From positions 1 to 13,383 of IMG/VR virus record IMGVR_UViG_2534681933_000013: DNA of 13,383 nt, one strand, 5' to 3'. The position numbers and the translations under genes were made by a program. Of the stretch, positions 5,612-13,383 are shown piece after piece. A model generated the notes under the pieces. The model did no database searches. It saw nothing but the letters and a program-made list of their open reading frames with translations, and was not told the origin of the DNA. The stretch comes from a virus. Its lineage: Duplodnaviria; Heunggongvirae; Uroviricota; Caudoviricetes. How positions within the stretch are numbered: position 1 is the stretch's first letter; every line of letters starts with the position of its first letter.

Positions 5612-6592
5612 ATGGATAAAATTCACGCAATGCAGTTGTTCATCAAAGTCGCGGAGCTGGAAAGTTTTTCCCGCGCAGCGGATTTCTTTGCTTTGCCAAA
5701 AGGAAGTGTTTCGCGCCAGATACAGGCACTGGAACATCAACTTGGCACCCAGCTTCTCCAGCGCACCACGCGACGGGTCAAACTCACGCCAGAAGGCATG
5801 ACCTATTATCAACGAGCAAAAGATGTGTTGAGTAATCTCAACGAACTGGACGGTCTGTTTCAGCAGGATGCCACCAGTATCAGCGGTAAATTACGCATCG
5901 ACATCCCGCCAGGAATCGCAAAAAGCCTGTTACTGCCGCACCTGTCGGAATTTCTCTATCAGCATCCGGGAATTGAGCTGGAACTGAGTAGCCATGACCG
6001 TCCGGTAGATATTCTTCATGATGGTTTTGATTGCGTGATACGCACTGGCGCGTTACCGGAAGATGGCGTTATCGCCCGTCCCCTCGGCAAACTGACCATG
6101 GTCAACTGTGCCAGTCCGCACTATCTGACGCGCTTTGGTTATCCGCAAAACCCCGACGATCTCACTTCACACGCAATAGTGCGTTATACACCGCACCTGG
6201 GTGTACATCCGTTAGGTTTTGAGGTTGCCAGCGTTAATGGCGTCCAGTGGTTTAAGTCTGGCGGCATGTTGACGGTAAACAGTAGCGAAAACTATCTCGC
6301 CGCCGGTCTTGCCGGTCTGGGGATTATTCAGATCCCGCGCATTGCCGTGCGCGAAGCCCTGCGTGCCGGGCGGCTTATTGAAGTGTTGCCAGGCTACCGT
6401 GCCGAGCCGCTCTCCCTTTCGCTGGTTTATCCGCAGCGTCGGGAGCTTTCCCGGCGTGTAAACCTGTTTATTGATGCGCCGCGCGATAAATGCACTCTAT
6501 CTTGTGCGATAAATGGCATCCACGCGGCGTTTCATTATTTGAAAAAGAATTACATTTCAGGTTGCGTTATGACAGTCCCAACAGGGTGGTAG
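5612..6592 (+). CDS. yhjC: LysR-family transcriptional regulator whose last ~40 codons read into prophage DNA (chimeric C-terminus)
   Basis: N-terminal LysR HTH (MDKIHAMQLFIKVAELESFSRAADFFALPKGSVSRQ). I prefer the ATG at 5612 to the ORF-track start at 5540 because it gives the canonical LysR N-terminus. The ORF is 326 codons versus about 299 expected, and the tail from about 6472 has Mu-end character. Confidence 0.8.
   Translation: MDKIHAMQLFIKVAELESFSRAADFFALPKGSVSRQIQALEHQLGTQLLQRTTRRVKLTPEGMTYYQRAKDVLSNLNELDGLFQQDATSISGKLRIDIPPGIAKSLLLPHLSEFLYQHPGIELELSSHDRPVDILHDGFDCVIRTGALPEDGVIARPLGKLTMVNCASPHYLTRFGYPQNPDDLTSHAIVRYTPHLGVHPLGFEVASVNGVQWFKSGGMLTVNSSENYLAAGLAGLGIIQIPRIAVREALRAGRLIEVLPGYRAEPLSLSLVYPQRRELSRRVNLFIDAPRDKCTLSCAINGIHAAFHYLKKNYISGCVMTVPTGW
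6472..6540. repeat. Prophage terminal region with Mu R1/R2-like transposase-binding repeats
   Basis: TGATGCGCCGCGCGATAAATGC matches 17 of 22 positions of the Mu right end as I recall it (TGAAGCGGCGCACGAAAAACGC). CGATAAATG occurs twice, at 6484-6492 and 6507-6515, 23 bp apart. Confidence 0.55.
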
Positions 6593-7122
6593 CGGTAGAT
6601 CGTTGACAGTCCAATATCATAGATAATTGCCAGCCGCTTTCTGTCATACCCTTTCTGGAGCAATCTTGCGATCTGCTCATGCTGCTCCTTCGTCAGTTTC
6701 GGGCGACGTCCTCCAACTCTCCCTTGTGCTCGCGCAGCAGCCAGTCCTGCCAGCGTGCGCTCAACTATCAGTTCACGCTCCATTTCTGCCAGTGCACCCA
6801 TCATATGAAAAAAGAACCTTCCCATCGGAGTGCTGGTATCGATTGAATCCGTCAGACTGCGAAAATTGACACCTTTTGCGCGTAGCTCTTCTGTGAGAGC
6901 AATGAGGTGTTTCATTCTTCTACCCAACCGATCCAGCTTCCAGACCACCAATGTATCCCCTCTTTTAAGGCACTTTAAAGCGCGTTTCAGGCCTGGTCGT
7001 TCCGACTTGGTTCCGCTCATTTTGTCCTCAAAAATCTGTTCACATCCTGCGCACATTAATGCATTGCGTTGCAAATCTGTGTTTTGGTCATTTGTTGACA
7101 CACGTATGTAGCCAATCAGCAT
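6550..7122 (-). CDS. Serine DNA invertase of the Hin/Gin/Pin/Cin family (190 aa)
   Basis: Translation from the ATG at 7120-7122 reads MLIGYIRVSTNDQNTDLQRNAL...DRLGRRMKHL...SLTDSIDTSTPMGRFFFHMMGALAEMERELIVERTLAGLAAARAQGR, closely resembling Hin and Gin with the catalytic Ser in RVSTNDQ. The 292-aa ORF-track extension upstream is antisense read-through of a fibre cassette. Confidence 0.9.
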   Translation of the reverse strand: MLIGYIRVSTNDQNTDLQRNALMCAGCEQIFEDKMSGTKSERPGLKRALKCLKRGDTLVVWKLDRLGRRMKHLIALTEELRAKGVNFRSLTDSIDTSTPMGRFFFHMMGALAEMERELIVERTLAGLAAARAQGRVGGRRPKLTKEQHEQIARLLQKGYDRKRLAIIYDIGLSTIYRYHPVGTVITQPEM

Positions 7123-7176
7123 TAAAAATACTCCCTTTTGAGTGGTTAAAGTACTGAGATAATGTGGGGAGGATTT

Positions 7177-7202
7177 GAGAGATAAACGTTGGTTTAGGGG
7201 AA
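7177..7202 (+). promoter_or_regulatory. hix/gix-like 26-bp recombination site 1
   Basis: GAGAGATAAACG-TT-GGTTTAGGGGAA. The right half-site is shared with sites 2 and 3, and the site sits at the 5' edge of the conserved fibre crossover region. Confidence 0.55.
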
Positions 7203-7700
7203 GACTCGGCGCTGCCCGTTGGTGTGCCCGTTCCATGGCCCTCAGCCACACCGCCAACGGGGTGGCTGAAATGCAATGGTGCAGCATTTTCTTCTGAAAT
7301 GTATCCCAAACTGGCAAAAGCCTACCCACCAATAAATTACCGGATTTACGGGGAGAATTTATTCGCGGTTGGGATGATGGGCGCGGGGTGGATGCTGGCC
7401 GCGCTTTGCTTAATTGGCAGCCACACACAATTTTGGATCATGCACACTATATGGAATTATGGACCGGGGATGGACTTGCCGCGGGAAGTACACGGGAAGG
7501 AGTAACCCCTGGAATACTGGCTACATACGGGGACGGGGGAATAGTTAAAACAGACGTAACCCGGTTTTAAATGTGCCTTCCTCACTACGTAGCCATTTAG
7601 CTCTCGTAATGTAAAACGGTTTGGTGAAATTAGTGGAAATGTAGGTACAGAAACTCGCCCTCGCAACGTTGCATTTAATTACATCGTAAGAGCCGCATGA
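7203..7700 (+). pseudogene. Silent, degenerate alternative tail-fibre C-terminal cassette 1
   Basis: Begins with the crossover-region peptide (ALPVGVPVPWPSATPPTGWLKCNGAAFSSEMYPKLAKAYP). A 1-nt deficit in a C-run near 7326-7330 shifts the frame, a stop follows at 7568-7570 and several stops at 7590-7627. The conserved C-terminus GNVGTETRPRNVAFNYIVRAA is still encoded at 7635-7697. Confidence 0.6.
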
Positions 7701-7719
7701 AAACGTTGGTTTAGGAGAA
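7694..7719 (+). promoter_or_regulatory. hix/gix-like 26-bp recombination site 2
   Basis: CGCATGAAAACG-TT-GGTTTAGGAGAA, in the same orientation as site 1. It overlaps the stop codon of cassette 1 and immediately precedes cassette 2. Confidence 0.55.
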
Positions 7720-8187
7720 GGTTCTGCACTGCCCGTTGGCGTGCCTGTTCCATGGCCCTTAGCAACACCACCAACGGGCTGGCTGAAATGTAACGGTGCA
7801 GCATTTTCTTCTGAAATGTACCCCAAACTGGCAAAAGCCTACCCCACCAATAAATTACCGGATTTACGCGGAGAATTTATCCGTGGCTGGGATGATGGGC
7901 GAGGAATTGATGCGGCACGCGCTTTATTGAGCATTCAAAGCGGGATGTTGGAAAAACATCGCCATATTGTTGTAGCTAACGATGGATATGACACAAAAGA
8001 TGAATGGGAGTTGGCTACGATTTTCAAAAAAACATATACACAAGGCAGGGGGCTTGATGCCACAAATACAGGAGGGAGTTTGATTCCATCACCAACGCTT
8101 CATTCACGAGGAAGTATTGGTAACACAGGTGGTAGTGAAACCCGCCCCCGCAATATTGCATTTAACTATATCGTGAGGGCGGCTTAG
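7720..8187 (+). CDS. Silent alternative tail-fibre C-terminal cassette 2, promoterless gene segment with an intact frame
   Basis: Open frame from the crossover site through GSALPVGVPVPWPLATPPTGWLKCNGAAFSSEMYPKLAKAYPTNKLPDLRGEFIRGWDDGRG to the family C-terminus ...ETRPRNIAFNYIVRAA. It has no start context of its own and would be expressed only after inversion. Confidence 0.6.
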   Translation, partial: GSALPVGVPVPWPLATPPTGWLKCNGAAFSSEMYPKLAKAYPTNKLPDLRGEFIRGWDDGRGIDAARALLSIQSGMLEKHRHIVVANDGYDTKDEWELATIFKKTYTQGRGLDATNTGGSLIPSPTLHSRGSIGNTGGSETRPRNIAFNYIVRAA

Positions 8188-8193
8188 TTATAT

Positions 8194-8805
8194 TCAACTG
8201 GCTGATGCCAGTGGTATTTCCGGCAAGTTGATATCTGGTGCCATGTTTATATCCATTGCGTTCAGCGCGTCTATATAATCCAGCACGGCATTAAGCCGGG
8301 TGGTTTCTGCCTGCGTCAACTTCCGCCCGGCCCGCAACTTCAACTGAATCAGACTTATGGAATCCATTGCCGCATCAGCCAGTGACTGGCGCTTGGTTTC
8401 TGCCGCTTCTACTGCGGCACGATGTTGTACCTCAGTATCTGTCACCCATTTTTCACCATCCCATTTATCGTATGGTGTTAACGGGGCGATAGTGGTTGTA
8501 TTTTTCGGGTAGTCACCCAGCGCCGTGATTTCTTCGGTGTTTCCCGTGTCAGTGCTATAGACGGTTTCACCACGATGGTCTGGCGCATACTCCCATGAAT
8601 TTAAATCCTCCGAACGGCGAATAGCATAGCCAGATTTATGTGCGCCTGGGGCATCTAAACAGGAATTAGCCGGAATACCAACACCCACAGCAAGATATTC
8701 AGTTGATTCGGAAATATATTCCCGTGTCTCACCATCATAGTTATAAACGACGATGTTTCCTGCCTGTACGGCAATAAGGTCATCATTTAATATCGCGTTA
8801 TTCAT
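8194..8805 (-). CDS. Tail-fibre assembly chaperone (Mu U / lambda Tfa-like, 203 aa)
   Basis: Complete ORF immediately downstream of the fibre gene with a TAATG stop/start overlap, in the position occupied by tfa genes in Mu, P1, e14 and lambda. Call is by position and size; I could not confirm a family motif. Confidence 0.75.
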   Translation of the reverse strand: MNNAILNDDLIAVQAGNIVVYNYDGETREYISESTEYLAVGVGIPANSCLDAPGAHKSGYAIRRSEDLNSWEYAPDHRGETVYSTDTGNTEEITALGDYPKNTTTIAPLTPYDKWDGEKWVTDTEVQHRAAVEAAETKRQSLADAAMDSISLIQLKLRAGRKLTQAETTRLNAVLDYIDALNAMDINMAPDINLPEIPLASAS

Positions 8806-9253
8806 TATGCGGTTCTCACAATATAATTGAAGGCAATATTGCGTGGGCGGTTTTCATTCCCATCTGAGGATTCCGTTCTGTATTGACTGGTAAATCTACC
8901 GTTAATTGCACCTTGCCGGACGGCATTATCTGTCGACAACAGACTATCCCCTCTTTTGTCATTTGGCACCAGTACCGTGTTATCCCACGCATCCCATGAC
9001 CGAATATTATGATAATGACTTCCTGTTAACCACCCCTGCATGCTTAAGATGCCCCTTCCGGCATCCACCCCGCGCCCATCATCCCAGCCACGGATAAATT
9101 CTCCGCGTAAATCCGGTAATTTATTGTTGGGTAGGCCTTTGCCAGATTTGGGTACATTTCAGAAGAAAATGCTGCACCGTTACATTTCAGCCAGCCCGTT
9201 GGTGGTGTTGCTAAGGGCCATGGAACAGGCACGCCAACGGGCAGTGCAGAACC

Positions 9254-9279
9254 TTCTCCTAAACCAAGGTAATTGAGGA
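9254..9279 (-). promoter_or_regulatory. hix/gix-like 26-bp recombination site 3, within the expressed fibre gene
   Basis: Plus strand TTCTCCTAAACC-AA-GGTAATTGAGGA matches about 19 of 26 positions of hixL as I recall it (TTCTTGAAAACCAAGGTTTTTGATAA). It is inverted relative to sites 1 and 2 and lies at the constant/variable boundary. Confidence 0.6.
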
Positions 9280-9439
9280 CTTCTTTTATACTGCCCATAG
9301 CGATAATAGCGCGACCAATAGCTGTAAGGGTTGTCAGTGCTGCGCGGTCTGCTCCGGTAAAATAAGGCAACCGATCTGCTGCAGTGGCAAGTCCTGCCAG
9401 AGCAGTGAGCGTGGCATCTGCCGGTTGTTTTCCGTTTGC

Positions 9440-9990
9440 CAGATCGTATGCAGCCTTGACCGCTTTCGGTGTGGCGGCCAGTATTTCAGACGTGCTGTTG
9501 ATGTCACTGCTCAATTGTACGGTGCCTTTTGCCGTCAGCGAGGCAGCAGGCACTCCCGTTATCTGACTCCACGGGTGAGTGTGGCTGACGGGCGCCTTGC
9601 CGGCTGCAAGGTCGTATGCAGCCTTGACCGCCTTCGGCGTGGCAGCCTCAGTTTCTGATTGACTGTCCGTGGCGCTGCTCAGTTGTACGGTGCCTTTTGC
9701 CGTCAGCGAGGCAGCAGGGACTCCCGTTATCTGACTCCACGGGTGAGTGTGGCTGACGGGCGCCTTGCCGGCTGCAAGGTCGTATGCAGCCTTGACCGCC
9801 TTCGGCGTGGCAGCCTCAGTTTCTGATTGACTGTCCGTGGCGCTGCTCAGTTGTACGGTGCCTTTTGCCGTCAGCGAGGCAGCAGGCACTCCCGTTATCT
9901 GACTCCACGGGTGAGTATGGCTGACGGGGGCCTTGCCGGCAGCCAGGTCATATGCAGCCTTGACGGCCTTTGGTGTGGCGGCCAGCGTTT
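9440..9990 (-). repeat. 168-bp in-frame tandem repeat array inside the tail-fibre gene
   Basis: The string CTGACTCC recurs at 9563, 9731 and 9899. Units 9563-9730 and 9731-9898 are near-identical; the flanking units are partial or diverged. Each unit encodes a 56-aa module. Confidence 0.8.
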
Positions 9991-10252
9991 CAGAGGTGCT
10001 AGTTGGTGGCACTGCTCAGTTGGGTGAACCCCTTAGCTGTCAGTGTCGCGTCCGGGTGGTTACGGGAACGTACGTGTTCAGCCAGTGACTGTGCGGCTTC
10101 CTCCGTTTTTTTCTTCAGCCATTTCGTCCTGTTTGCCAGTTGCCGGGGGGCTCGATTTGATATCCCGTCTGCACCACCCAGAACCGGATCTGATGTCTCC
10201 AGTTGATAGATATTTTCTTCCCACTTTTCTGTTTCATTCAGGTTTCCCATAA

Positions 10253-10831
10253 TCAACTGCTCCCGTGGTTATAACTGCCATCATGGATGGCGGTATTGTT
10301 ATAGCGAATGGCCACAGACTGATACTCCAGGCTGGCCAGATGGCAGCGGGCCGGTGCAAATGCAGCCAGCGTCTGACGCAGCATCGCGGCCTGATCGTTA
10401 GTAATGGGCTGTTTCAGAATAACGCGATAAACTGCCCAGGCGGCTGCATCTCCATGAACAAACAGTCCGTTATAGCTGCGATTGCCGTCGTAACTGAGAC
10501 GACCTGTGCCTTCAATCAGATCCACTTCACCAAAGCCAAAACGGCGGATAACTTCCCGGATTGACCACGGCGTCCCTTTATACCGGTGCAGTTCGATGGC
10601 TGCTTTTATAAGCATGCGGCGAACATCGTCCGATTCCGCCAGCTCCCAGCCATCGCCAGACAGTGAGAACTGCTCGCCCAGCCATGGCAGCGCGGAACTG
10701 TCGACGATATCGACGAGAAAGACCATCAGTACGCTCAGGTCGATGTTATCCAGCCGTCCTGCCAGTCTTCCCAGCGTCCTGAGACTGATATCACCCTCAA
10801 GCGGTGGCGGGAGTTGTAATGGCTCAGTCAT
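10253..10831 (-). CDS. Baseplate/tail protein, P2 gpI / Mu gp48-like (192 aa)
   Basis: Complete ORF immediately upstream of the fibre gene, with overlapping stop and start codons on both sides. Call is by size and position in the baseplate operon. Confidence 0.7.
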   Translation of the reverse strand: MTEPLQLPPPLEGDISLRTLGRLAGRLDNIDLSVLMVFLVDIVDSSALPWLGEQFSLSGDGWELAESDDVRRMLIKAAIELHRYKGTPWSIREVIRRFGFGEVDLIEGTGRLSYDGNRSYNGLFVHGDAAAWAVYRVILKQPITNDQAAMLRQTLAAFAPARCHLASLEYQSVAIRYNNTAIHDGSYNHGSS

Positions 10832-11927
10832 CAGACACTCCAGTCATGTTAAGAGTGATTGCCGTACAGTTTGCCCATTCGTTTTCTGCCACCACCCGCA
10901 GTGCCGGTGTCACCAGTTCAACCTGGTACACCCCGGAAACGGACAATGCACTGATAATCTGGCTGGGGACAATATCGCGCCCCAGCGTGGCGGCACGTGA
11001 TGCCACCCAGTTCTGTATGGCGCTGTTAGCGGCATCTTTTACAGACCTGGCATCCTGATCACGATAGATCGTAATCTTGGCTTCAATGGTGTAATCCACC
11101 TTCACTGGTGTTTTAGCCCGCACTGTATCAGTGAGTGGCCTGACTTTCTCATCAGAGCAGAAACTCTCTACCAGCGTGAGAACACCGCCGTCCGGCAGAC
11201 CGGTACTGAGCAGCGGATACAGATCTACGGTCCCGGGAACCGGGGAAAGCACAGCAACATCGACAATGTTGGGATGGGCCTGCATGGCATGAAAGCGGTA
11301 TGCGCCACGGCTTCCGGCATTGGTGAATGACTCCGGGGCCAGCCTGATACGCTCCCGGAGCCTGTCATCGTCTTCCTGTTCTGAACCGCCGGAACTGGCC
11401 GTCAGATTGCTCACCAGCAGGTCGACGTTATCAATCTCATCGAGTAACTGACTGACCTGCGCAGGTTGCCAGCCGTTACCAGCGGTACCGGGTTCGGTAC
11501 AGGTGGACGTGACATTGACCAGCAGCAATCCGGCCTTCAGTACCACATCTGTATCGGTGGCAAAAATAACGCTGTCGGAAGCGCTGACGCGGGTGCCTGC
11601 CGGGATCAGCACATCAATGGCCAGTGCCTCATCTACGGAGAACTGGAGCGTGGTAGTGGCAGGCTGCGCGGCAAGACGGTATACACCGACCAGTTCACCG
11701 AGGTAATCAATCATCGGCTCACGGGCAAAGGCGACCAGATTCTGCTTTGCTGCCTCCTGTACCGCAACCCTGACCAGCATTTCGCGATAGGCCCACAGAT
11801 CAATCAGCAGACGTTCTGCCTGTGCCGGGTACAGCGTTTTGCCGGTATCCGCTTCATACTTCGCAATCATTTCTGCCGTGATTTTGTCGGCATCGCGTTC
11901 AATAAAATCGGGTTCTGTCAGCGCCAT
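10824..11927 (-). CDS. Baseplate protein, P2 gpJ / Mu gp47-like (367 aa)
   Basis: Complete ORF between the gp25-like and gpI-like genes, overlapping both neighbours by 8-10 nt. Size and position fit the Baseplate_J family. Confidence 0.75.
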   Translation of the reverse strand: MALTEPDFIERDADKITAEMIAKYEADTGKTLYPAQAERLLIDLWAYREMLVRVAVQEAAKQNLVAFAREPMIDYLGELVGVYRLAAQPATTTLQFSVDEALAIDVLIPAGTRVSASDSVIFATDTDVVLKAGLLLVNVTSTCTEPGTAGNGWQPAQVSQLLDEIDNVDLLVSNLTASSGGSEQEDDDRLRERIRLAPESFTNAGSRGAYRFHAMQAHPNIVDVAVLSPVPGTVDLYPLLSTGLPDGGVLTLVESFCSDEKVRPLTDTVRAKTPVKVDYTIEAKITIYRDQDARSVKDAANSAIQNWVASRAATLGRDIVPSQIISALSVSGVYQVELVTPALRVVAENEWANCTAITLNMTGVSDD

Positions 11928-12265
11928 AGCAGCTCCTGAGTCCGGGTCTGTCCGTCTGAGCCTTTCCAGCTCACCCGGAGCGTAAGATGTTCGCCGTCGA
12001 CGGCGGGTTTAACTGACATAAGCTGGCAGCGGGGCTCCCAGCGCCGGATGGCATCGACGGATTCGCGCACCACATGCGGAATGGCCCGGTCTACAGGCCA
12101 GTCGATATAAAGATGCAGATTGCTGCCGAACTCCGGGCGATGCGGGTCGCTGCCGCGGGGAGTCCGCAGGATAATTTGAATCGCCTGCCGGATATCATCC
12201 AGCCCCCGGACAATTTCGCCGGGAGCCTGCAGGGTCGGTTGCCAGAATACTGAGGTTGTTTTCAT
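11918..12265 (-). CDS. Baseplate wedge protein, gp25/gpW-like (115 aa)
   Basis: Contains the gp25-family core IQIILRTPRGSDPHRPEFGSNL. The 115-aa size matches P2 gpW and Mu gp46. Confidence 0.8.
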   Translation of the reverse strand: MKTTSVFWQPTLQAPGEIVRGLDDIRQAIQIILRTPRGSDPHRPEFGSNLHLYIDWPVDRAIPHVVRESVDAIRRWEPRCQLMSVKPAVDGEHLTLRVSWKGSDGQTRTQELLWR

Positions 12266-12283
12266 GGGGGCAGTATTGCCCCC
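12266..12283 (-). other. Stable hairpin abutting the start codon of the gp25-like gene
   Basis: GGGGGCA-GTAT-TGCCCCC, a perfect 7-bp GC-rich stem. On the mRNA it ends directly at the AUG and covers the likely Shine-Dalgarno position. Confidence 0.5.
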
Positions 12284-12319
12284 GTGCGGGAACGCTGATA
12301 TTAAAGGCGTTTAAAAAGC

Positions 12320-12916
12320 TCAGTGGGAGTGGTGGCTGGAGTTTTCGCCATCAGACAACATACTGCCCGTGGCATGGGCATTCCCTTTAATCTCGATATT
12401 GCCATGGATGGTCGCGGTAACACCTTCACCACCAGAACCCGCCATGCCTCCTTCGTAAATCAGCTTACCCCTGACACGCAGATCTCCGGTAAGTTCGGTT
12501 TCCGGTGCGTCAATCGTGGCTTTCTGTGTTTTCAATACCACATCAGCACCACACTCAATGACAATATGCTCAATGCCGCCCCGGATGGTCAGAGTGTGCG
12601 TCTTCCGGTTGTAGCTGTACTCTGCACCATCAGCAAACCGGGTTCCCCGGATATTTTTGTCACTGAACGGTGGTTTATCGACGTCTGAATACACCGCGCC
12701 CAGAATAACACCATCCTCGCCGTTGGCATCGAGCAGTACCTCAACCTGCTCCCCCACGTCAGGGAGCCAGTAATCTTTGTTATCCTGGGTATTGCGCTGC
12801 AGCACGTTAAGCCAGTTTGTGCGCAGGTTATCGCATTCAGGCAGACGAACGCGGGCCTGAACCCTGTCGGCATCAACGGCACTGACCGTACCGACCTGAC
12901 GAGTGACACCAGTCAT
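12320..12916 (-). CDS. Baseplate spike/assembly protein, gpV / Mu gp45-like (198 aa)
   Basis: Complete ORF with a gpV-like N-terminal segment (WLPDVGEQVEVLL) and a glycine-rich C-terminal part. Its start overlaps the upstream gene's stop (ATGA). Confidence 0.75.
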   Translation of the reverse strand: MTGVTRQVGTVSAVDADRVQARVRLPECDNLRTNWLNVLQRNTQDNKDYWLPDVGEQVEVLLDANGEDGVILGAVYSDVDKPPFSDKNIRGTRFADGAEYSYNRKTHTLTIRGGIEHIVIECGADVVLKTQKATIDAPETELTGDLRVRGKLIYEGGMAGSGGEGVTATIHGNIEIKGNAHATGSMLSDGENSSHHSH

Positions 12917-13383
12917 TTTTTCTTCTCCTTAATCACCGTCGATGTACTGCCATCCGGGTGATAAACCGTGAGTTTCTGAGTTTTTTGTTTTTTCCCTCTT
13001 GTGACTGGCCCCCGTGCCACTTCCAGCTCTGTGGTGTAGCCGCTGTTACGGTCAAACGCATGGCGGGCAGTGGTTATGAGCCATGGCCCGGATAACTGCC
13101 CAAAACCCACCAGTTCAATTTTGTTGCCTGCTGTCAGTTGAGGTGTTCCCGTCAGCGTCAGGGAGCCGTTCTGCTGGTATTCGTTATGTCTGGCCAGTGC
13201 TGAATCCGCTTTAATCCGGGCACTGTCCGGGTCGCTGACGCGGCTGTTAACTTTAAGTGAGTCAGCGCTGGTAACCTTACCACCTTTGAGCTTTTTGTCG
13301 CTTTCACGGGTACCACCATCAGCTTCGTAGACGATCAGTTTTTTACTGCTGCTTTTCTGGTGTTTTACCTTTGCAGATTTATA
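12913..13383 (-). CDS. Phage baseplate/tail protein, C-terminal 156 codons; possibly the gpD / Mu gp44 hub, by synteny only
   Basis: The minus-strand frame is open from the window end to the stop at 12913-12915 (ends ...LTVYHPDGSTSTVIKEKKK). The ORF track shows only its last 65 codons from an internal GTG. Product assignment is positional. Confidence 0.45.
   Translation of the reverse strand, partial: YKSAKVKHQKSSSKKLIVYEADGGTRESDKKLKGGKVTSADSLKVNSRVSDPDSARIKADSALARHNEYQQNGSLTLTGTPQLTAGNKIELVGFGQLSGPWLITTARHAFDRNSGYTTELEVARGPVTRGKKQKTQKLTVYHPDGSTSTVIKEKKK

Follow-up and report, generated by a model that had tools for sequence, protein, structure and literature searches.

The window analysed here is the whole of a 13,383 base pair (bp) contig, AIFS01000042.1, from a draft Escherichia coli assembly (GCA_000249535.2, whole-genome shotgun prefix AIFS01). 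Positions 6472-13383 are best read as the right arm of a prophage, a transposable myovirus of the BcepMu family, that entered codon 287 of the host gene yhjC (rcdB) by transposition, and we put the probability of this reading at about 0.9. The element itself is already known and is common. Only the insertion site is new, since the phage end is joined to yhjC in none of 5,426 complete E. coli genomes.

The junction in yhjC and the end of the element

The first 6471 positions align with E. coli K-12 MG1655 in a single blastn block of 98.8% identity with one gap, which stops exactly at 6471. The genes follow the K-12 order, gadA'-ccp(yhjA)-treF-yhjB-yhjC/rcdB. The sequence shared with K-12 ends in ...CCTGTTTAT, and is followed by GCAGTGGCTGG... 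in K-12 as opposed to TGATGCGCCGCGCGATAAATG... in the window, so that T at 6472 and G at 6473 stand where K-12 reads GCAGTGG.... An initial annotation of this DNA had recognized the K-12 gene order up to about 6471 and proposed an alignment with MG1655 in which identity should fail at 6471/6472; the alignment breaks at precisely that point. That annotation had also described a 5'-TG at 6472 with a likeness to the right end of Mu, and an invertase gene at 78 bp from the end, with a myovirus fibre and baseplate operon after it. These descriptions agree with our results, and every coordinate and number it gave is correct.

From 6472 onward the window is the right end of a prophage. Of the 5,426 complete genomes, 597 (approximately 11%) contain the 129 bases starting at this position; the places number 655 in all, with up to three per genome and 14 on plasmids. 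There are 586 records with at least 99% identity, and in many genomes the end is 100% identical. The match begins at the first base of the query, the same T, in all 60 of the matches listed. Across genomes the end adjoins different genes, among them zntB, rstB, yeiB, yqhA, nfrB, csiE, emrA, idi, ascB, dmsC, ssuB and a phosphopentomutase gene. With so many recurrences of this end, the junction is not a chance feature.

Six full-length copies were examined, those of ABU 83972, DLI.5a, B1.H1.1, MS20677, PK8275 and GN04275. They are 36.4-38.2 kilobases (kb) long and interrupt six different genes. All six have TG...CA termini and all six are flanked by exact 6-bp direct repeats (ACAAAT, GCAAGG, TTGGCA, CGTTGC, ATATCC and CCATCG). 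Such ends and repeats are the signature of transpositional insertion, with a stagger of 6 bp as against the 5 bp of Mu.

The target sequence beside the phage end in the window would then be GTTTAT (6466-6471), on the strength of the 6-bp duplications that flank six of the six related insertions. The initial annotation had expected a 5-bp duplication, TTTAT (6467-6471), and needs to be amended in this respect; the 6-bp rule covers the E. coli lineage, as represented by these six copies. GTTTAT is expected again at the other prophage end, before GCAGTGGCTGG... and the rest of yhjC. The predicted other junction would read ...TCA, GTTTAT, GCAGTGGCTGGCTGGCGTAATGAAAGAGTACCTGGACTGA, that is ...CA then GTTTATGCAGTGG, or, for a 5-bp duplication, ...CA then TTTATGCAGTGG.

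The non-coding right terminus occupies 6472-6549, has its 5'-TG at 6472-6473 and reads, inward, TGATGCGCCGCGCGATAAATGCACTCTATCTTGTGCGATAAATGG. It contains two 9-bp repeats, GCGATAAAT, at 6483-6491 and 6506-6514. They conform to the 9-mer G[CA]GATAWWT at positions 12-20 and 35-43 from the tip. The same 9-mer is present at the same two positions in three E. coli left-end variants and at both ends of BcepMu, and elsewhere in the window it has two occurrences only. By analogy with other transposons the repeats are presumed to be transposase binding sites. The tip itself (6472-6492) matches the right end of Mu at 16 of 21 bases, and the right ends of BcepMu and Mu both start with TGAAGCG. This likeness of the tip to Mu exists despite transposases that lack BLASTP similarity.

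Could the junction have some other origin? A temperate phage of P2 type, integrating at a specific site, might be suspected from the P2-type tail genes of the element, and an assembly chimera of yhjC with an unrelated prophage contig from the draft status of the source. We attach almost no probability to either and both were rejected. The join coincides with the terminal T of an element end that is defined independently in hundreds of genomes; a misassembly would not be expected to hit the exact terminus. In other genomes the end lies at many different sites and target duplications accompany it, in place of the fixed att site of a P2-like phage, and the annotation of the full-length relatives includes no integrase, of tyrosine or serine type.

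Affiliation and completeness of the prophage

Gene maps were read from the annotated copies in ABU 83972, DLI.5a, B1.H1.1 and MS20677. The early strand carries mor, gemA (gp16), small genes, gam, a gene for an ExeA-family AAA+ ATPase, one for an 'integrase catalytic domain' protein, one for a DUF3102 protein and genes for small helix-turn-helix proteins. On the opposite strand are the repressor gene, variable cargo that often includes a Dam methylase, then holin, SLT endolysin, spanin and the small and large terminase genes. The head genes, on the same strand as the terminase, encode a DUF935 portal, proteins like Mu F and G, a protease/scaffold and the major head protein. A P2-type tail module follows (sheath, tube, E, tape measure, U, X, D, V, W, J, I and H), and after it the fibre-assembly gene, silent fibre cassettes and the invertase gene. 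In all four copies the early arm, from mor to the transposase gene, and the genes for lysis, head and tail lie on opposite strands, and the repressor gene is at the interface.

This gene order is collinear, gene for gene, with BcepMu. The transposase of the relatives, whose gene lies outside the window, is 68% identical to BcepMu gp09, and their ATPase, likewise encoded outside the window, is 59% identical to BcepMu gp08. The D, V, W, J, I and H module of P2 type is homologous to BcepMu gp47-52, and within the window gpJ shares 55% identity with BcepMu gp50, compared with 27% over half of its length with Mu gp47. Escherichia phage PhiKM (PQ738613), placed in the genus Bcepmuvirus by GenBank, is 98% identical to the window over 4 kb. 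The family is also marked by insertion at many sites with a short duplication, as found here at 655 places and in the 6-bp repeats of the six E. coli copies. Earlier studies reported Bcepmuvirus prophages in E. coli ST131, and others among the phages induced from bacteria of the human gut. The BcepMu group has a Mu-like life style, TG...CA termini, an rve transposase of Tn552/IS1604 type, an ExeA homologue and early genes on the bottom strand (PMC2628397, PMC2771037).

The initial annotation had taken the element for a transposable, Mu-like prophage inserted within the 3' end of yhjC, and not one bounded by an integrase and att sites. That description is borne out by the many insertion sites, the TG...CA ends with duplications, the DDE transposase and ATPase of the relatives and the absence of an annotated integrase in them. 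'Mu-like' is apt insofar as the element is transposable and its relatives carry Gam, Mor, GemA and Mu-type head genes; as a statement of kinship with Mu in the strict sense it does not stand, the family being that of BcepMu. MuA and MuB genes, for which it had proposed a search, are not found in the relatives, which carry a transposase and ATPase of BcepMu type.

We regard it as very unlikely that this is a prophage of the Mu genus (Muvirus), transposing by MuA and MuB and leaving the 5-bp duplication TTTAT. The TG terminus with its 16 of 21 bases in common with the Mu right end, an invertase 77% identical to Gin, and the Gam, Mor, GemA and head genes of the relatives would all suit such a phage. 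However, BLASTP detects no significant match of the relatives' transposase to MuA (E = 0.46) or of their ATPase to MuB (E = 3.8), and Pfam assigns only rve to the former and only AAA_22 to the latter, with no Mu-transposase domains. The duplication is of 6 bp in all six insertions, and gpJ is much closer to BcepMu. The layout typical of Mu, with c-ner-A-B at the left end, the major operons on one strand and com/mom at the right end, is not found: the early arm is inverted and internal, and in the window only 78 non-coding bp separate the invertase gene from the end, with no com/mom. One feature of Mu that is present is a Gin-type invertase close to the right end, together with a fibre segment that can be inverted.

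For annotators the consequence is that search rules based on Mu will mis-define these E. coli elements, which have 6-bp and not 5-bp duplications and lack homologues of MuA and MuB. The strain of this contig carries a transposable prophage of the BcepMu type, and prophages of this type occur in some 11% of the complete E. coli genomes.

Is the prophage complete in this strain? Several observations weigh against the assignment to a transposed BcepMu-type prophage or against its integrity. The window holds just 6.9 kb of the element, with no transposase, repressor or left end in view, so that a truncated remnant is possible. The predicted other junction, in its 5-bp or 6-bp form, is absent from the two contig collections scanned (genome and metagenome contigs). 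The BcepMu prophage in Burkholderia cenocepacia NCTC13227 has exact TG ends and no flanking direct repeat, its flanks ...GAGCATG and AATTGGA... sharing none (L015 6179, L026 2926); this is perhaps due to later rearrangement. BcepMu is without a fibre inversion system (PMC2771037), unlike the E. coli phage. Finally, the fibre gene in the window has two 1-nucleotide (nt) indels relative to its relatives, which could mean decay or sequencing error.

A defective remnant, in which only the right arm with its invertase, fibre and baseplate genes is left beside yhjC from a phage that once transposed, would account for a contig that stops inside gpD and for frameshifts in the fibre gene and in one cassette. 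The closest relative in a complete genome, DLI.5a, also has a shortened and partly pseudogenised fibre gene. We nevertheless think a remnant improbable. The six copies examined in complete genomes are without exception full length, and the 6.9 kb of the window is collinear with DLI.5a at 97.5-99.4% identity and approximately 98-99% identical to the other copies outside the variable fibre and cassette region. Breaks within prophages are usual in short-read drafts, and the indels may be sequencing errors. The contig end lies inside a gpD-like gene, where a second related copy or some other repeat in this genome may have broken the assembly. A full prophage would be expected in this strain.

The insertion of this prophage into codon 287 of yhjC would have come about through strand transfer by a DDE transposase. 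The rve-fold enzyme, resembling those of Tn552 and IS1604, and its ExeA-like AAA+ partner would bind the two 9-bp repeats at each end, cleavage would take place beside the terminal 5'-TG...CA-3', and the ends would be joined to the target with a 6-bp stagger, repair of which would duplicate 6 bp of target. Translation of yhjC would then run 40 codons into the right end and yield a LysR-type protein of 326 residues with an altered C-terminus, while the adjacent Gin-like invertase would switch the C-terminal part of the tail fibre among three cassettes.

The cargo differs between copies at two spots, the interval from repressor to holin and that from mor to the left end (L003 4575-5680 and 14289-16580; L004 25646-28621; L005 3852-5163; L006 25810-27982). 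Between repressor and holin it comprises Dam methylase, a 'nucleoid-associated protein', a small ATPase and hypothetical proteins. None of nine cargo proteins of related copies matched a PADLOC defence model.

The chimeric regulator and the genes of the right arm

The chimeric yhjC/rcdB open reading frame (ORF) extends from 5612 to 6592 on the plus strand. The assignment is based on translation and the K-12 alignment; the same product is called on the contig and Pfam recognizes HTH_1 and LysR_substrate domains. The protein of 326 residues consists of 286 native residues and 40 new ones, with the stop codon at 6590-6592. Codon 287 straddles the junction and is changed from ATG to ATT. The native tail of 13 residues, MQWLAGVMKEYLD, is lost and IDAPRDKCTLSCAINGIHAAFHYLKKNYISGCVMTVPTGW takes its place. 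Depending on reading phase the phage end presents a stop after 0, 13 or 40 codons. The phase that yhjC enters is free of stops for 40 codons, and yhjC is therefore translated into phage DNA. A reading of 40 codons into foreign DNA, at the expense of about 13 native residues, had been proposed initially and the translation agrees. A native divergent allele of yhjC was considered and rejected. The odd C-terminus of YhjC in this draft genome is an artefact of phage insertion and not a natural allele.

LysR_substrate covers residues 90-293 of native YhjC, so the break after residue 286 lies within the last residues of the domain, and the Pfam score of the chimera is only about 2 bits lower. In a sequence search of the PDB, homologues of LysR type align as far as residue 288 (...RVNLFID) and not beyond. 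The native C-terminal stretch RRVNLFMQWLAGVMKEYLD looks like the usual C-terminal helix of LysR-type regulators and is probably helical. In the chimera a proline stands three residues past the junction, and the C-terminal helix would be cut short and replaced. A single-sequence AlphaFold model of the chimeric protein has a mean predicted local distance difference test (pLDDT) value of 34, too low to be of use.

RcdB/YhjC is a reported regulator of csgD and curli in E. coli, and Shigella flexneri and Salmonella Typhimurium are reported to require it for virulence or the expression of virulence genes. The insertion need not be neutral: the clipping of the conserved C-terminal stretch and the addition of a 40-residue phage tail could alter assembly or action of the regulator, and the phage end could repeatedly give rise to chimeric host proteins; we hold this combined proposal to be possible though rather doubtful. 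An effect on phenotype, on curli or, in related pathogens, on virulence, is conceivable.

In E. coli MS20677 (NZ_CP082053.1) ascB is annotated as an intact coding sequence that extends 40 nt into the same right end (L006 1-541). It is a second host gene with a C-terminus encoded by this element. As the right end is open in one phase, gene prediction carries interrupted host genes on into the phage sequence, as with yhjC here and ascB in MS20677.

The invertase gene (6550-7122, minus strand) encodes a Gin-type serine DNA invertase of 190 residues with Pfam domains Resolvase and HTH_7. It is 78 bp (6472-6549) from the prophage end and convergent with yhjC, the last 43 nt of the chimeric ORF overlapping its 3' end (6550-6592). 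Scanning of 6300-7300 for promoters and terminators gave no hits, nor did a search of the whole window against Rfam; no terminator-like site was found between the chimeric yhjC and the invertase gene. Given the overlap and the lack of such a site, transcripts started at the yhjC promoter could continue into the invertase gene in antisense orientation.

Beyond the invertase gene lies the invertible fibre region. A gix-like site, A, GAGAGATAAACGTTGGTTTAGGGGAA, occupies 7177-7202 on the plus strand, and 10 of the 12 bases in its right half agree with Mu gix. Site B is at 7694-7719 on the plus strand, and site C at 9254-9279 on the minus strand, inside the tail-fibre gene. Each of the three gix-like sites is followed by a near-identical 'collar' segment, forming inverted cassette repeats, which indicates one expressed and two silent fibre C-termini. 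Silent cassette 1 (7186-7570, plus strand), a tail-fibre C-terminal segment with the collar domain, has a 1-nt frameshift near 7325, where CCC stands in place of CCCC. Silent cassette 2, of the same type, lies within 7694-8187 on the plus strand and retains an intact ORF at 7741-8187. The tail-fibre assembly protein (Pfam Caudo_TAP) is encoded at 8194-8805 on the minus strand. The three cassettes (7177-9279) share this single fibre-assembly gene, which after inversion would be antisense to the fibre gene.

The tail-fibre gene itself (8805-10256, minus strand), similar to P2 gpH and in the expressed orientation, is divided by its two 1-nt indels into three ORFs. One indel is an extra A near 10001, absent in five relatives, and the other is a G/C missing from a run near 9130, absent in the DLI.5a copies, the relatives in each case being those that match the site. 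Together with the frameshift in cassette 1 these may represent decay or errors in the draft sequence. The gene contains a tandem repeat of 168 nt, 3.3 copies with 92% matches (9437-9983), that encodes ...TPKAVKAAYDLA...SHTHPWSQITGVP... units. Annotated fibre lengths in the relatives range from about 250 to 611 residues, and blastn matches between relatives are offset by multiples of the repeat.

The baseplate genes, all on the minus strand, fill the remainder of the window (10253-13383) and are collinear with the annotated ABU 83972 prophage. They are P2-type gpI (10253-10831, Pfam Tail_P2_I), gpJ (10824-11927, Baseplate_J), gpW (11918-12265, GPW_gp25) and gpV (12320-12916, Phage_base_V), and the C-terminal part of gpD (12913-13383), which is cut by the contig end.

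Comparison with Tn552, Mu and BcepMu

At the level of the transposition machinery the literature assigns the BcepMu transposase to the Tn552/IS1604 group of DDE (rve) transposons. In the E. coli phage the transposition module drives a 37-kb myovirus genome. Tn552 has TG...CA ends, a partner ATPase and target duplications of 6-7 bp, which would fit the 6 bp observed here.

With Mu the E. coli phage shares integration and replication by transposition, insertion at many sites within genes and TG...CA ends. It also shares Gam, Mor, GemA, the Mu-type portal and head genes, and a Gin invertase (77% identity) by the right end that switches the fibre C-terminus. In contrast, MuA and MuB show no BLASTP similarity to its transposase and ATPase, and the Mu duplication is of 5 bp where that of the E. 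coli phage is of 6 bp. The early region of the E. coli phage is inverted and internal, its tail is of P2 type and it has no com/mom. It has one fibre-assembly gene for three cassettes, whereas Mu has one for each orientation.

Summer et al. 2004 are said to have included the SalMu, PhotoMu and ChromoMu prophages in the BcepMu family. BcepMu itself is the closest match in gene order, in the transposase of rve/Tn552 type (68%) and ExeA-like ATPase (59%), and in the inverted early arm with mor, gemA and gam. The SLT endolysin lysis cassette, Mu-type head and P2-type tail (gpJ 55%) are also common to the two, as are TG...CA termini with two 9-bp repeats at positions 12-20 and 35-43. They differ in that the prophage in NCTC13227 is without a flanking repeat and the E. 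coli copies have clean 6-bp duplications. The right end is a further difference: an acyltransferase gene is found there in BcepMu, and a Gin-type invertase gene with an invertible fibre region of three cassettes in the E. coli phage. Because BcepMu is without an inversion system and the E. coli phage has one, the latter is a mosaic, a BcepMu backbone combined with a fibre switch of the Mu/P1 type.

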